Source: an uncultured bacterium (lineage in GTDB: Bacteria; Patescibacteriota; Minisyncoccia; Phycocordibacterales; Phycocordibacteraceae). From it: a stretch of 64,000 nt of DNA. Numbering within the stretch: the first letter of the stretch is position 1; each line of letters opens with the position of its first letter. The position numbers were made by a program, and so were the translations under genes. Under the pieces are notes generated by a model that was not told the origin of the DNA, ran no database searches, and was given only the letters and a program-made list of their open reading frames with translations. The stretch spans positions 216 to 64,215 of the forward strand of contig CAIJZI010000009.1 in assembly GCA_903825105.1 (NCBI GenBank), written 5' to 3'. Positions 20,478 through 61,021 of the stretch are shown piece after piece.

Positions 20478-20510
20478 TGAAATGGTTATCCACAGCGTCG
20501 TTATAGATAC

Positions 20511-20538
20511 TTGACACGAATATGTGGTTCGATATACT
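20511..20538 (+). promoter_or_regulatory. Sigma70-like promoter (TTGACA-16-TATACT)
   Basis: Consensus hexamers seen directly. Confidence 0.55.
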
Positions 20539-20544
20539 TTCCAT

Positions 20545-20623
20545 ACGGGTTGACAAGTCCGTTTCCGAAGGTCGAACCTTCATACGCAAACCGCCGCTCG
20601 CAAGAGCGGCGGGTTGCTTTTTG
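20545..20623 (+). ncRNA. Candidate ~80-nt small RNA (promoter, three hairpins, intrinsic terminator)
   Basis: Promoter at 20511; ends in ccgccgctc-gcaa-gagcggcgg plus U-run; no ORF. Confidence 0.4.
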
Positions 20624-20689
20624 CGTGCCCCAAAACACGGCGTACCTATACCCTCTTTTAGGACAAGGTTAAACCTTGTTTAGGCTAAT

Positions 20690-29292: not shown

Positions 29293-29640
29293 ATGAAGAG
29301 ACTGCTCTTTCTGCTCAGTTTTGCGGCCATTTTGGCCACTATTACCGCCCTGCCGGCCAACGCAGCCATCCCGGCCAATACCGTCACTTCCACCATCTCG
29401 ACCTCGACGACCACCGCCTTTGTCCCGACCCCGCCGCCGGCAACGGCACGGCCCAGCGATGCGCTGATGCTGCCAGGATTGACGGCCACGGACAAGCCGC
29501 AGCCAGCGCAGCGACTCACGGCATTCTTGCCGATGCCGCCGCCTCCTCCTCCGGACCTTCCGCCGCCACCGCCGGACCCGAACGCGCCTCCTCCGAGGTG
29601 TGAGTATCTCATCGACCTTCTGAACCCTGCGTGCTGGTAG
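29293..29640 (+). CDS. Secreted proline-rich protein
   Basis: Signal peptide, PPPPPPDLPPPPPDPNAPPP, C-terminal Cys pair. Confidence 0.5.
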   Translation: MKRLLFLLSFAAILATITALPANAAIPANTVTSTISTSTTTAFVPTPPPATARPSDALMLPGLTATDKPQPAQRLTAFLPMPPPPPPDLPPPPPDPNAPPPRCEYLIDLLNPACW

Positions 29641-42163: not shown

Positions 42164-42364
42164 GTGAGAAACTCGATTGCACTTTTTTTCGTTCTTTCGG
42201 CTTCGGTGGCATTCGCGCAGCCCGCCGCCGTGAAGCCGGTACTTCCGCCGGTGCAGACGGTGACGCCGCCGATAATCAACAGCACGGTCAAACCGGCACT
42301 TCCGCCGGTGCAGACAGCGACCTTGTCAAAGGCCGCTGGGGCCGTCAAGCCGGCGCTGAAGTAG
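42164..42364 (+). CDS. Small secreted repeat protein (KPxLPPVQT repeats)
   Basis: GTG start with a GGGGAGG RBS, signal peptide, two VKPxLPPVQTxT repeats. Confidence 0.4.
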   Translation: MRNSIALFFVLSASVAFAQPAAVKPVLPPVQTVTPPIINSTVKPALPPVQTATLSKAAGAVKPALK

Positions 42365-52991: not shown

Positions 52992-53627
52992 TTATTTACC
53001 AGCGGGCGTTATCACTAGTATACTCCCGTCGCGACCAATAAGATCCTTTTTCTTCAGAGTAAGTTTATCAACACTCTCGCTCCCATTGCCCGATTCTTTT
53101 AAGAAAAGCCCGAGCGACTTGTCGTCATAATGCATCGGGACAATAATCTTCGGCTCGAGCGAGACCGCGAGCTCGTGCGCTTTAGCTGGAGAGAGAACAC
53201 CGTCGCCACCAATCGGCACAAAGAGCACATCGATCTCTCCGATATTTTCTCTCGCGTCTTTTGAAAGTTCGGTATCAGAAAGTGCACCGAGATGCACAAG
53301 AATCATATCTTCTAATTGAACGGAGTAGATAGTATTAACTGCTTCTTCTTCACCTTTAACACCGTATTTACTCTTCGACAAAAATCCTTGAATCACGACG
53401 CCTTGTCGCTCGTATTCTCCCGGGCCCGTTATCGCGAATGGCTCCTTATCGCCATAAGTCACTTCTTCGACGCCGTTCATATCAGCGTGATCGCGCGAGA
53501 CGAGCGCGACATCAGCGCCGAAGCGTACAGCCGGTAGTGACGAGCCTTTTGAAATAGGGTCGAAGACGAGCGTGAGGTCGCCGAAAGTGACTTTAAAACA
53601 TTGCCCGCCGTGGTGAGTGATAACCAT
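52992..53627 (-). CDS. MBL-fold metallo-hydrolase (UPF0173-like)
   Basis: ITHHGGQCF...HADMNG...GDG pattern of the metallo-beta-lactamase fold. Confidence 0.7.
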   Translation of the reverse strand: MVITHHGGQCFKVTFGDLTLVFDPISKGSSLPAVRFGADVALVSRDHADMNGVEEVTYGDKEPFAITGPGEYERQGVVIQGFLSKSKYGVKGEEEAVNTIYSVQLEDMILVHLGALSDTELSKDARENIGEIDVLFVPIGGDGVLSPAKAHELAVSLEPKIIVPMHYDDKSLGLFLKESGNGSESVDKLTLKKKDLIGRDGSILVITPAGK

Positions 53628-53685
53628 ATTAAGTACTTATATTCTATCATAAAATCTGTCGCGGCGATAGCTGTTTATGAGCCAC

Positions 53686-53905
53686 TTGACAATAAAATAG
53701 GGCTGTGATAACTTACCAATAAGCCTGTTGTTTGGGCAAATTCAAACCGTCAGGAGAACATTTGAAAAAAATGAAATTTTCGGATAATTTGAACTAACCC
53801 GGCGGCGGCCAGCTCGAGGTGTTGCGACATTTCGAGCCCTGGTGCAAAGAAGCCGTTCGTCACCCATCAGCGGGTACGAGCGGCTTTTTCTTTTTCGCCC
53901 ATTTC
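53686..53905 (+). ncRNA. Noncoding module 1: promoter (TTGACA...TGTGATAAC), ~190-nt RNA, bipartite intrinsic terminator
   Basis: Only an 8-codon ORF (MKFSDNLN); terminator gccgttcg-tcACCCATCAGCGGGTAc-gagcggc plus T-run. Confidence 0.45.
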
Positions 53906-53978
53906 ATTTCGTGCCTTGATTTTATGGCTTATTTGCTTGATTTTTTGTACTTCACCACGCGCCATTTTGTAAAAGTGC

Positions 53979-54445
53979 TTGACAAATAAAATCGAGTGTG
54001 ATAGGTTTAAGTCAGATCAGCCTGTACATTTCCAACAAAGGTTGGCCCACCCTCGGCAACTTCGCCGGCGGCTAGCCCTTCGGCCTGGGCGTTGCGCGTC
54101 GGGCCCGGCGCGAGCGGCTGACCACTTTTTTGGTTAGCATCGCTCGCCGCCAATGGCCACGCGCACGAAGGGCGATTGCATCAAGTGATGCAGTCGCCCT
54201 GTATGGGGGACGGCAGCGAGCAACTCCGTGAGTTGCCGTCGCGCGGGACCTTCCCACCGTTCCCCAGTCAACGGGCGGGCGCGCTCTAGGCGCGCCCGGC
54301 CCAATCGGCCCACCTCCGAGTCAGGCGACTCGGCGCACCTCCTCAGTGGCATGGTGCCACAGGAGCTCTTAGATCTTTTTCAAAAAAAGGCCGCTTGCCT
54401 TCTCTACCCGTCAGCGGGTACTGAGGACAAGCGGCTTTTCTATTT
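53979..54445 (+). ncRNA. Noncoding module 2: paralogous promoter, ~125-nt module-1-like segment, ~300-nt GC-rich (~70% GC) structured core, homologous terminator
   Basis: Promoter identical over TTGACA.aTAAAAT.G.G.TGTGATA; shares CCGGCGGC..AGC and GTTGCG..CGAGCGGCT..TTTTT with module 1; terminator loop ACCCGTCAGCGGGTAC; no credible ORF. Confidence 0.45.
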
Positions 54446-54570
54446 CCCTTCTCATTTTTTATACCCTGTGATAGAATGCCCGAGTTGCGTGAGGAGAAGT
54501 ATAGATCAGCTAACCCTCGATGCCGAAAGGCATGAGTACTGATTTTGAAAATCTGCACGACTTTTAAAGT

Positions 54571-55641
54571 ATGAATGAAGAGAACCCGATGTTTTCTCTG
54601 CTTGAAACAATCCCGACACCGCCCGGAGCTGGCGACATTGTTGAAGGGACGATTATCGCCATCGAGAGAGGGCGTGTTTATATTGACCTCCCGCCATTTG
54701 GTACAGGGATTATTTATGGTCGCGAATACCTCAACGCCGCTGATGTATTGCGCAAGGCGAATAAAGGCGACATTATAAGTGCGAAGGTTGTCGACCCAGC
54801 TGGTCGCGATGGCTATATCGAACTCTCGCTTAAAGAAGCTCGACAAGCAGCGATCTGGGGCGAAGCCGAAGCGGCCATTCTCTCGGGAACGCCGTATTCA
54901 CTCAATGTTGAAGATGCGAACAAAGGCGGACTCATCCTCTCGTGGCAGGGTATCCCTGGCTTCTTGCCAGCGTCACAACTCTCGAAGGAGCATTATCCGC
55001 GCGTACCAGAGGGAGACAAAGATCGCATTCTTGGAGAACTGATGGCATTTGTCGGACACCCGATTTCTGTCCGCATCATTACTGCTGATGCAAAGGAAGG
55101 AAAATTAATTTTCTCTGAACGAACCGGCAATGAGGCTGAAGAGAAGGCGTCGCTTATCGATAAGTATCAGGTGGGTGATGTCGCAGAAGGCGAAGTGACG
55201 GGCATCGTCGACTTCGGTGTCTTCGTGAAGATTGAACAAGGGCTCGAAGGATTGGTGCATATCAGCGAGCTCGATTGGGGCCTCGTCGAAGATCCTCACA
55301 CACTCTTTAATGTTGGTGACCGTGTGAAAGTAAAGATTATCGAGATCAAAGATGGGAAGGTCTCCCTCTCGATTAAAGCGTTGAAAGAAAATCCTTGGCA
55401 CTCTGCCTCTGCGCGCTACACCAAGGGAATGGAAGTGCCGGGCGTTGTGATCAAATATAACAAGCACGGTGCGCTCGCTTCGATCGAAGAAGGCGTCGCG
55501 GGGCTTGTGCATGTGAGCGACTTCGCTTCGCCTCTCGAACTACGCGAGAAGCTCGAACTTGGGAAGACCTATCCGTTTACCATTTCTCTCTTTGAACCAA
55601 AGGACCAGCGAATGACGCTCGTCTTGGTTGGGAAGAAATAA
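54571..55641 (+). CDS. rpsA: 30S ribosomal protein S1 (short, four S1 domains)
   Basis: Repeated S1 OB-fold modules (GDIVEGTI..., VGDVAEGEVTGIVDFGVFVK..., GMEVPGVVIKYN...). Confidence 0.9.
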   Translation: MNEENPMFSLLETIPTPPGAGDIVEGTIIAIERGRVYIDLPPFGTGIIYGREYLNAADVLRKANKGDIISAKVVDPAGRDGYIELSLKEARQAAIWGEAEAAILSGTPYSLNVEDANKGGLILSWQGIPGFLPASQLSKEHYPRVPEGDKDRILGELMAFVGHPISVRIITADAKEGKLIFSERTGNEAEEKASLIDKYQVGDVAEGEVTGIVDFGVFVKIEQGLEGLVHISELDWGLVEDPHTLFNVGDRVKVKIIEIKDGKVSLSIKALKENPWHSASARYTKGMEVPGVVIKYNKHGALASIEEGVAGLVHVSDFASPLELREKLELGKTYPFTISLFEPKDQRMTLVLVGKK

Positions 55642-60375: not shown

Positions 60376-60409
60376 TTTAAGAAAGAAAATCGAGTAATCC
60401 ACAGCTCCA

Positions 60410-60437
60410 TTGAAAATTAATATTGATTTGATATAGT
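60410..60437 (+). promoter_or_regulatory. Sigma70-like promoter (TTGAAA-16-TATAGT) for the 60444 small RNA
   Basis: Hexamers and spacing read directly; the predicted TSS coincides with the first base of the RNA P1 helix. Confidence 0.6.
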
Positions 60438-60443
60438 GATCTT

Positions 60444-60535
60444 GTGCCTGCGGGCGCAAGCCCCTTATCGGCTAAGGATTACCTAAGCTGAAGGCAGGCA
60501 CATCAGAGGAACCGCCTTTATTGGCGGTTTTTCTG
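60444..60535 (+). ncRNA. Candidate 92-nt small RNA: three-way junction plus intrinsic terminator
   Basis: P1 GUGCCUGC/GCAGGCAC encloses GGGC-GCAA-GCCC and GCUAAGG-AUUA-CCUAAGC; terminator aaccgcc-tttatt-ggcggtt plus U5; no ORF; next gene is on the opposite strand. Confidence 0.5.
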
Positions 60536-60538
60536 ATT

Positions 60539-61021
60539 TTAATCTTCTGCCTCATTTCTATAAAGTTTCTGCTTCCCTATTTTCCCAATCGGCATAACAC
60601 TCCAAAAATGTAATTTTCCATCCCCGATTTTTCTTACAATTACTCGTACCAAAATCATTGACTCTTCACCGACAATGTCGTGGAAGCCCCAATACTCAAC
60701 TTGTTTGGTTTTACTAAATCCATCTTTCCCAGGCTCTCCCCATTTTTCGAGAGTATTTCTATATTCCTGAACCGTCCCAGCATTACGGAGAATATGCAGT
60801 GCTGGTTTTAACAATCTGAGTTTCAGTCGTTGTTCTTGAATATTTCTTGGTTGTCTGTTTGGTTTATTCAACAAATGATTAAAACCGTCAGAAGTAAGGG
60901 AGATATTTAATTTGAAATACGGACAGAAAATTTCTGGGGTCGATTCATACAACTCTCGCGATGTTTCTATAAGTTTATGATAGTCGCGAATAGTTCTTTC
61001 TATATCAATCTTCTGTTCCAT
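60539..61021 (-). CDS. Hypothetical protein (160 aa)
   Basis: ORF with AT-rich codon usage; no recognisable motif. Confidence 0.35.
   Translation of the reverse strand: MEQKIDIERTIRDYHKLIETSRELYESTPEIFCPYFKLNISLTSDGFNHLLNKPNRQPRNIQEQRLKLRLLKPALHILRNAGTVQEYRNTLEKWGEPGKDGFSKTKQVEYWGFHDIVGEESMILVRVIVRKIGDGKLHFWSVMPIGKIGKQKLYRNEAED

Follow-up and report, generated by a model that had tools for sequence, protein, structure and literature searches.

Sequence analysis of a 64,000-nt stretch (hereafter the window) of contig CAIJZI010000009.1, from an uncultured bacterium, revealed a 944-nt gap between the gene of a metallo-beta-lactamase (MBL)-fold hydrolase (positions 52992–53627, minus strand) and rpsA, the gene of ribosomal protein S1 (54571–55641, plus strand). 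The gap appears to be what this species carries in a hypervariable cassette slot, and the two units in it, designated modules 1 and 2, may well be young, lineage-restricted small RNA (sRNA) genes that stand outside any described or conserved RNA family. Both are read towards rpsA, and each would run from a sigma-70-type promoter, with TTGACA and an extended -10 element, to a strong intrinsic terminator, the promoter and conserved leader of rpsA itself standing behind the two. All elements named in a preliminary description of the gap were found again in the sequence at the same positions; the description had the noncoding modules fill the interval, which holds up to the second terminator (T2), but the last ~120 nt (54449–54570) turned out to be the rpsA promoter and the conserved leader. 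The modules make a well-delimited pair of candidate sRNA genes in a bacterium of the candidate phyla radiation (CPR), in which regulatory RNAs are essentially unexplored; to our knowledge, no experimentally defined sRNAs are known for these streamlined bacteria.

The nearest relatives of the S1, gyrase A and MBL-fold proteins were found in metagenome-assembled genomes labelled Candidatus Kaiserbacteria or Paceibacterota (CPR/Patescibacteria). A total of 94 related loci (given L-numbers) were compared, 84 of which were anchored on the MBL and S1 genes for measurement of the gap. Two other independent assemblies (L081 and L082) had the same locus with a single difference in 3.7 kb (54288 A>C), located in the 3-nt loop of a hairpin (54277–54297) within the GC-rich core of module 2. 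Among 5.8 billion clustered proteins, no relative was found at 91–100% identity for S1 or at 88–100% identity for the MBL protein.

Promoter-to-terminator units and module 1

A strict motif scan placed the putative promoter of module 1, P1, at 53686–53714 on the plus strand (TTGACA at 53686–53691, a 17-nt spacer and TG-A-TAACTT at 53706–53714), and that of module 2, P2, was located by motif scan at 53979–54007 on the same strand (TTGACA at 53979–53984, a 17-nt spacer and TG-A-TAGGTT at 53999–54007). Both thus look like sigma-70 promoters of the extended -10 type, having a TTGACA-like -35, a 17-nt spacer and TGnTAnnnT. They had been described as near-identical; two similar copies are indeed present, but the identity is 73% over 26 nt without gaps, or about 21 of 26 positions when one indel is allowed. 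Such sites are rare in the window, as the strict pattern TTGNNN-N13-16-TGnTAnnnT was matched 14 times, 11 of them directly preceding a gene start, and the only sites with no gene directly behind were P1, P2 and one at 60410. Homologs of P1 occur at the matching position in L087, L089 and L084; L084 also has the same -10 (TGATAGGTT) and CAGAT start region as P2, and a related promoter was found in L089 and L047.

Terminator T1 (53852–53896, plus strand) consists of a 13-bp composite stem with the tip ACCCAUCAGCGGGU, followed by UUUUUCUUUUU; its hairpin (53852–53884) has a predicted energy of -21.8 kcal/mol (z -5.1) and the U-tract runs to 53896. T2 (54386–54446, plus strand) has 22 pairs and the tip UACCCGUCAGCGGGUA, followed by UUUUCUAUUU, the hairpin (54386–54439) being predicted at -33.2 kcal/mol (z -6.4) with a U-tract to ~54446. 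Both have the stable GC-rich hairpin with a U-tract directly behind it that marks an intrinsic terminator, and the terminator scan called T2 bidirectional, with a terminator predicted on the minus strand as well. The T1 stem, AAGCCGTTCGT/ACGA(G/A)CGGCTT, is common to the window and L087. Conserved loops had been claimed for the two terminators, and a 16-nt hairpin tip (ACCCRTCAGCGGGTAC) is in fact present in T1 and T2, these being the only two exact copies in the window (4 matches at up to 3 mismatches vs 0.37 expected). As a conserved motif in its own right this tip was rejected, since the third near-match (20146) lies inside an ABC-ATPase gene and the tip of the L087 ortholog is different.

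Between the two units, alignment to relatives revealed a conserved spacer (53910–53985, plus strand) that includes the -35 of P2 and a degenerate DnaA-box position, TACTTCACC. It is 79% identical over 77 nt (E 3e-9) to a region that immediately precedes a cassette promoter in the slot of L047, and aligns with spacers of L084 and L089 that carry DnaA boxes; an exact-pattern scan of JGI metagenomes for it gave 15 chance matches only. In L047, the promoter behind the common spacer drives two small protein genes, whose products had no relative in the window or the other loci. Taken together, with the nearest relatives having kept promoters and terminators in matching positions, the sequence supports the view that P1/T1 and P2/T2 form apparently autonomous units, as the preliminary description had held of the second of them.

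The predicted transcript of module 1 (53721–53896, plus strand) is ~175 nt long, which corrects the ~190 nt given before, and comprises a 5' part, a hairpin (53809–53843) and T1. The 5' part contains an SD (Shine-Dalgarno)-like AGGAGA, which would be occluded in the RNA, and a possible small open reading frame (sORF) of at most 11 codons (TTG at 53762 to TAA at 53797). The fold has a minimum free energy of -68.2 kcal/mol (z -4.4) with 12 G-U pairs, and the fold of the minus strand is less stable (-55.6 vs -68.2 kcal/mol for the plus strand). Module 1 is the ortholog of a cassette in L087, with which it has the promoter and the 3' hairpin plus terminator in common; the 3' domain corresponds to L087 1989–2103 (nhmmer E 1.7e-4), and the two sequences gave a consensus fold with 2 compensatory pairs and several compatible changes. 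A tRNA-like piece in module 1 was considered and dropped, because its 14-nt identity to tRNA-Lys is about at chance level and ARAGORN was negative. The internal blocks said to be common to the two modules are present, but they are only 9–15 nt long and individually not significant.

In their sigma-70 promoter and rho-independent terminator, their size within 100–450 nt, the lack of any ORF beyond a micro-ORF, the stem-loops at the 5' and 3' ends, the rapid turnover and the narrow phylogenetic range, the two modules resemble lineage-specific bacterial sRNA genes. They differ in that module 2 lies at the long, GC-rich extreme of such genes and in that both are known here from sequence alone. A type I toxin-antitoxin system is not indicated, as no small hydrophobic toxin ORF was found in the modules and the sORFs of sister cassettes are hydrophilic and unrelated.

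The GC-rich core of module 2

Module 2 would give an ORF-less transcript of ~430 nt (54014–54446, plus strand), as judged by fold, frame and homology searches. The region 54008–54442 was predicted to fold at -238.5 kcal/mol (z -11.1), with 150 pairs of which 104 are G-C and 8 are G-U; the first 122 nt of the module fold no better than shuffled sequences (z -0.5). The structure is concentrated in a core (54090–54366, plus strand) made up of six consecutive local hairpins on the plus strand (54090–54167, 54169–54200, 54204–54266, 54273–54301, 54316–54333 and 54339–54365), where GC in 100-nt windows is 0.65–0.73 compared with a mean of 0.48 (48%) for the window. Taken alone (54090–54380), the core has z -7.8 as RNA and z -9.3 as single-stranded DNA. 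An insert of ~300 nt and ~70% GC with no credible ORF had been described here, and both parts of that statement stand: all six frames are broken by stops or have no SD-preceded start, and none gave a Pfam match or a relative among the 5.8 billion clustered proteins. An internal terminator at 54131 was rejected, the hairpin not abutting the T-run and the segment folding no better than shuffled sequences.

Comparison with the nearest relatives showed which parts of this unit they have as well. Module 2 and its counterparts in L084 and L089 have in common the -10 (TGATAGGTT), the start region CAGAT...GTACAT, the pre-terminator hairpin AGTGGCA-NNN-TGCCACA and the terminator position, and the core stem GTGGCA/TGCCAC also occurs in module 2 of L089. 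Only the interior differs: the relatives have an SD sequence and a small ORF, and the window has a ~290-nt chain of hairpins. The promoter, the first ~20 nt, the last hairpin and the terminator position are taken to be orthologous to the sORF cassettes of sister species, and the interior would have given way to six local hairpins in a row, a species-specific stretch at 70% GC. If transcription and termination proceed as predicted, the hairpin chain would make the RNA nuclease-resistant and stable, and if the RNA acts at all it would do so by pairing with other RNAs in trans, the most plausible contacts being two partly single-stranded CACCUCC motifs (54310–54316 and 54335–54341) located just 5' of the last two core hairpins. 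This motif is identical to the anti-SD core, and it could mask GGAGG ribosome-binding sites. Module 2 may, then, be functional or may be transcribed debris. As a 350–450-nt RNA made up of successive local hairpins, with a promoter and a terminator of its own, module 2 is reminiscent of the CsrB/RsmZ sponge RNAs, from which it differs in that its loops lack a repeated GGA or any other repeated motif.

Several observations weigh against the sRNA-gene interpretation. The helices of module 2 are nearly all Watson-Crick, and the minus strand folds about as well as the plus strand (-230.4 vs -238.5 kcal/mol); the structure alone is thus no proof of function at the RNA level, and the palindromes could be selected at the DNA level or newly made. 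The predicted fold resembles beads on a string, with no long-range helices or multiway junctions, and the core loops (UUUUUU, AAGU, CGU, CCU, CUA, AGGC and UGG) have no motif in common. Both copies of CACCUCC were placed by a 13-nt direct repeat (TCGGCNCACCTCC, twice), so that the anti-SD idea depends on a locally duplicated 13-mer. No homolog of the core was found in the 94 related loci by blastn or nhmmer, and because of this no covariation could be obtained; for module 1, a covariance model of the 3' domain (R1) retrieved only generic terminators beyond its two training sequences. Finally, the DnaA-box positions upstream of P1 and P2, which are intact in many related cassettes (see below), are degenerate in the window, and could reflect relaxed selection on both modules. 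The structure signal of module 2 is real by the folding model but carries no strand information, and the stable structured RNA suggested by the preliminary description retains its exceptionally stable predicted fold (z -11.1) and absence of an ORF, but not a strand-specific one, the minus strand folding nearly as well.

These same features bear on the possibility that module 2, and perhaps module 1, is transcribed debris, that is, a decaying cassette that has lost its small ORF and whose core, with no function of its own, arose through inverted duplication of local sequence and from the stems of relic terminators, between an intact promoter and terminator. We regard this as the main alternative, though the less likely one. 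The orthologous cassettes in L084, L089 and L047 have SD-preceded ORFs at the place of the core, slot contents turn over completely between species, the fold of module 2 shows no strand asymmetry and the upstream DnaA boxes are degenerate. It is also suggestive that the hairpin 54090–54167 reads as a T1-type 3' arm (CGAGCGGCT...TTTTTT) followed by its own inverse, and that the hairpin 54273–54301 resembles GGGCGCGCC-type terminator stems of L047 without the U-tract; however, these resemblances to relic terminators are short and individually not significant. Moreover, ~100 nearly perfect pairs (z -7.8 to -11) are something that neutral decay should erode, not create; both P2 and T2 are fully preserved, and the genome is otherwise compact.

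The same core could instead be a DNA-level or foreign element, namely a palindromic insert, mobile or acquired horizontally, that entered a small cassette already in place, such as an element similar to miniature inverted-repeat transposable elements (MITE), palindrome-associated transposable elements (PATE) or repetitive extragenic palindromes (REP), or the remnant of an IS200/IS605-type end. In line with this, its GC lies 22 points above that of the genome, it is absent from the nearest relatives with both cassette flanks kept, an AGATC direct repeat occurs at 54014 and 54372 (flanking 54019–54371), and folding as single-stranded DNA is strong (z -9.3); one relative (L093) also carries a Y1 transposase gene beside rpsA. 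However, no terminal inverted repeats and no second copy of the core were found in the 64-kb window, and slots of higher-GC relatives reach 0.70–0.76 GC without being mobile. The core also gave no match in BLAST searches of PLSDB plasmids and GenBank phages or in the related loci, and degenerate searches with its longest stop-free frame, back-translated, gave none in IMG/VR and none among the 600 candidate stretches listed from JGI metagenomes. A mobile or foreign origin of the core is given little probability.

Searches against known RNAs bear on whether the core belongs to any described family. Across the window, Rfam 15 at gathering score returned ten tRNAs only, and at E up to 10 with permissive filters the region 53600–54600 gave nothing but terminator look-alikes (E 0.36–4.5), far below gathering scores. 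ARAGORN likewise found 10 tRNAs and no tmRNA (transfer-messenger RNA) in the window, and no Rfam match to tmRNA was obtained. For RNase P RNA (RF00010/RF00011) there was no covariance-model match, the P4 sequences and those of conserved regions I and V (CR-I, CR-V) are absent, and no long-range P1/P4 pairing was seen. No Rfam match was obtained for 6S RNA or signal recognition particle (SRP) RNA, and neither module folds as a single rod; OLE, GOLLD, ROOL, HEARO, raiA and the other large noncoding RNAs of Rfam 15 gave no covariance-model match either. The set of families proposed for this check (RNase P, tmRNA, 6S, SRP, OLE, HEARO, ROOL and GOLLD) thus produced no match, and the remark that neither RNase P RNA nor tmRNA can be recognised here was borne out by Rfam, ARAGORN and the missing core motifs. 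With the large RNAs just named module 2 has in common a long intergenic location, GC far above that of the genome, high predicted structure and no ORF; unlike them, it lacks homologs, covariation, multistem junctions, long-range pairing and an Rfam match.

It is therefore highly improbable, and largely refuted, that the core is a divergent RNase P RNA, tmRNA, 6S or SRP RNA, or a frameshifted or mis-assembled protein gene. The ~365 nt from the first to the last helix is an RNase-P-like size, and elsewhere in the window GC-rich spots are genuine genes of small proteins; on the other side stand the Rfam and ARAGORN negatives, the missing RNase P sequences and long-range helices, the two independent assemblies that give the same sequence except for one single-nucleotide polymorphism in a loop, and the absence of an SD-preceded start, a Pfam match or a protein relative. 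The search for homologs of the core that the preliminary description had proposed yielded none: with both modules as queries against the 94 loci, the matches from blastn and nhmmer were confined to the leader of rpsA, the module 1 ortholog in L087 and the spacer block of L047. Its suggestion of an undescribed RNA class or a divergent known one was not sustained, as there is a single sequence with no homolog and no Rfam match, and the sister cassettes have other interiors; a new class is unsupported because exactly one sequence exists. Nor do the two modules have what a conserved structured RNA class would show, the core being without homolog and module 1 having one ortholog with 2 compensatory pairs. 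With one sequence from one species, which allows neither generalisation nor a covariation test, module 2 is not a demonstrable new class of RNA but a species-specific orphan in the sequences searched.

A hypervariable slot between the MBL gene and rpsA in Kaiserbacteria

Across the 84 anchored loci, the distance from the MBL gene to the rpsA start ranged from 178 to 2337 nt, which for most relatives includes ~45 nt of an N-terminal extension of S1. Most S1 proteins of Kaiserbacteria (372 aa or more; rpsA starts in L001–L080) have this extension of ~15 residues (MSEEKKAAVP...TIHL), which is missing from the S1 of the window's small clade (356–357 aa; start at 54571). The gap is at its bare minimum in ~24 species and the rest have extra DNA. 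The notion that the relatives simply lack the modules was rejected on this ground, since anchoring on MBL and S1 revealed gaps of up to 2.3 kb.

In the 54 occupied slots, strict extended -10 promoters numbered 58 on the rpsA strand vs 4 on the other, and terminators 79 vs 36. Pairing each promoter with the next terminator gave 40 cassettes with a median length of 292 nt. An SD-preceded ORF of 30 codons or more was found in 28 of the 40, many of the cassette ORFs having signal peptides and low-complexity sequence rich in Ala, Gly and Pro, and 10 cassettes had no SD-preceded ORF of 15 codons or more; the contents are thus small secreted proteins, tiny sORFs or ORF-less RNAs. Hardly any of this is common to different species: all-against-all blastp of 290 slot ORFs gave three linked pairs only, all-against-all blastn of the slots gave 23 short blocks, and Rfam searches of the 20 largest slots gave no match. 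Among the very few cassettes conserved between species is one in L040 (238–372), L045 (779–909) and L059 (162–336; all slot coordinates), which have a cassette promoter, a 5' untranslated region (UTR) and an sORF start (M..HPPGH.G..) in common. A sliding z-score survey of nine slots showed that windows with z below -4 are common, mostly at terminators, and in higher-GC relatives the slots reach 0.70–0.76 GC as well.

On the rpsA strand, the slots contain 11 copies of the perfect DnaA box TTATCCACA, compared with 0.23 expected, and the other strand has none. The box typically lies 6–20 nt upstream of the -35 of a cassette, and the slots with this enrichment include L016, L018, L030, L040, L052, L056, L064, L084, L089, L094 and others. 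In the nearest relatives of the window (L084, L087, L089 and L094, with S1 85–89% identical), one or two cassettes occupy the same positions as modules 1 and 2, and the order promoter, 5' hairpin, interior, terminator and rpsA promoter is also seen in L084/85, L087/88, L089–91 and L094. Their cassette promoters are homologs of P1 or P2, and in several cases a DnaA box lies 17–18 nt upstream. The cassettes contain a 5' hairpin that is conserved, a strong SD, an ORF of 10–46 codons that is not conserved, and GC-rich hairpins, with the terminator abutting the rpsA promoter. As read from these sequences, the slot is a fast-turnover locus of species-specific cassettes, not a conserved RNA gene, and modules 1 and 2 would be what this species currently holds in it.

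Like the hypervariable slots known between core genes, the gap has conserved flanks (MBL and rpsA), a variable length (178–2337 nt) and contents that are almost never common to species. It differs in that the cassettes are tiny (median ~290 nt), all co-oriented with rpsA and each provided with its own extended -10 promoter and terminator, in the frequent DnaA box 6–20 nt upstream of the -35, and in that no integrase or recombination site was seen. It was noticed that in L093 a Y1 (IS200/IS605-type) transposase gene (786–1493) lies directly downstream of rpsA, which indicates that such elements are active around the locus in this clade. It is conceivable, although rather improbable, that the MBL-rpsA gap is a birthplace of small genes, in which ready-made and often DnaA-box-controlled promoters and terminators frame freely changing interiors, and that module 2 is a newborn, structured and regulatory RNA of ~430 nt made of recycled terminator-like hairpins, whose CACCUCC motifs would damp translation initiation in trans. 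Regardless of this, the gap upstream of rpsA in Kaiserbacteria provides a natural setting in which to study how reduced genomes gain and lose small genes.

The rpsA promoter and leader, and other features of the window

Downstream of both modules, a promoter scan located the putative rpsA promoter P3 (54449–54477, plus strand; TTCTCA, a 17-nt spacer and TG-A-TAGAAT), the -35 of which abuts the U-tract of T2. All four close species, and also relatives without any module, have kept its -10 region. P3 is followed by the rpsA 5' leader (54500–54573, plus strand), which contains two helices, a GNRA-type loop, the junction UAACCCU/AGUAC, a single-stranded tail UYGAAAAUCYGCAC and the start codon. A covariance model of the leader (R2), built from ten sequences, found it directly upstream of rpsA in 57 sources (Kaiserbacteria loci) at E<1e-3. 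Compensatory changes were observed in 13 of the 14 base pairs, and 85.3% of the cells were paired, compared with 64.5% in shuffles (0 of 500 reaching the observed value) and 33–48% when the partners were slid; no Rfam family matched 54500–54573.

With its conserved position in a 5' UTR and its covarying helices, the leader has the features expected of an r-protein (ribosomal protein) mRNA leader, and is by its sequence a good candidate for an S1 autoregulatory element. By analogy with r-protein autoregulatory leaders, which it resembles in its location in an r-protein 5' UTR, its family-wide conservation and its two covarying helices, S1 binding is a candidate function; it differs from them in having no Rfam family, and the likeness applies to the leader only, not to the modules. 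Being covarying and absent from Rfam, it is a testable candidate for S1 autoregulation, and the slot and the leader are more reusable results than the modules. In the closest relative, L092 (S1 91% identical), the rpsA leader was seen to be interrupted by an insertion of ~80 nt (19–95), which separates the conserved GGAGAAGTA from the structured motif; the contig ends there.

The presence of P3 and the leader also bears on whether the tandem promoters and terminators serve in cis, tuning S1 by regulated read-through (attenuation through a small ORF or a hairpin-binding protein) or by occlusion of P3. All units point at rpsA, the T2 U-tract overlaps the -35 region of P3, the hairpin tip common to T1 and T2 could be a protein site, and the sister modules, in which a strong SD and a tiny ORF precede the hairpins and terminator, are built like leader-peptide attenuators. 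Nevertheless, whether or not a species has modules, its rpsA retains a conserved promoter and a covarying leader, which makes cis control unlikely; ~24 species have no cassette at all, cassettes in many species encode ordinary small secreted proteins, the T1/T2 tip is absent from the L087 ortholog, and no convincing antiterminator alternative was found. As for a leader-peptide attenuator in the window itself, module 1 has at most an 11-codon ORF starting with TTG, module 2 has none, and P3 lies behind T2. We consider cis control of rpsA quite improbable, and prefer to regard modules 1 and 2 as sRNA genes in their own right.

At the other end of the gap, a block on the minus strand (53641–53660; reverse complement TGATAGAAT) would, from its sequence, contain the extended -10 promoter of the divergent MBL-fold gene, which starts at 53627. 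Its columns are invariant in the four-species alignment, and 53640–53659 is 95% identical to L084/L085. The diverging gene orientation and the proximity of gyrA led us to consider a replication origin, which was rejected since the gap contains no DnaA box, the GC skew does not switch and there is no dnaA nearby.

Elsewhere in the window, two further ORF-less units were found on the plus strand, so that modules 1 and 2 are not the only ones of their kind in this genome. One (20486–20626) has a perfect DnaA box, 16 nt, TTGACA-16-TATACT, a predicted three-hairpin RNA of ~86 nt and an intrinsic terminator (z -4.3), and belongs to no Rfam family. The other (60395–60540), between ftsA and ftsZ, has TAATCCACA, 6 nt and an extended -10 promoter (TTGAAA...TGATATAGT), followed by a predicted RNA of ~97 nt that comprises a branched hairpin plus a terminator (z -7.9); its best Rfam match was RNAI, at 23.9 bits vs a threshold of 47. 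High GC alone is no sign of RNA here, since other GC-rich peaks are protein genes: those at 29293–29640 and 42164–42364 (both plus strand) are small genes for signal-peptide-bearing, low-complexity proteins rich in Pro and Ala, products of the same kind as those of many slot cassettes elsewhere.

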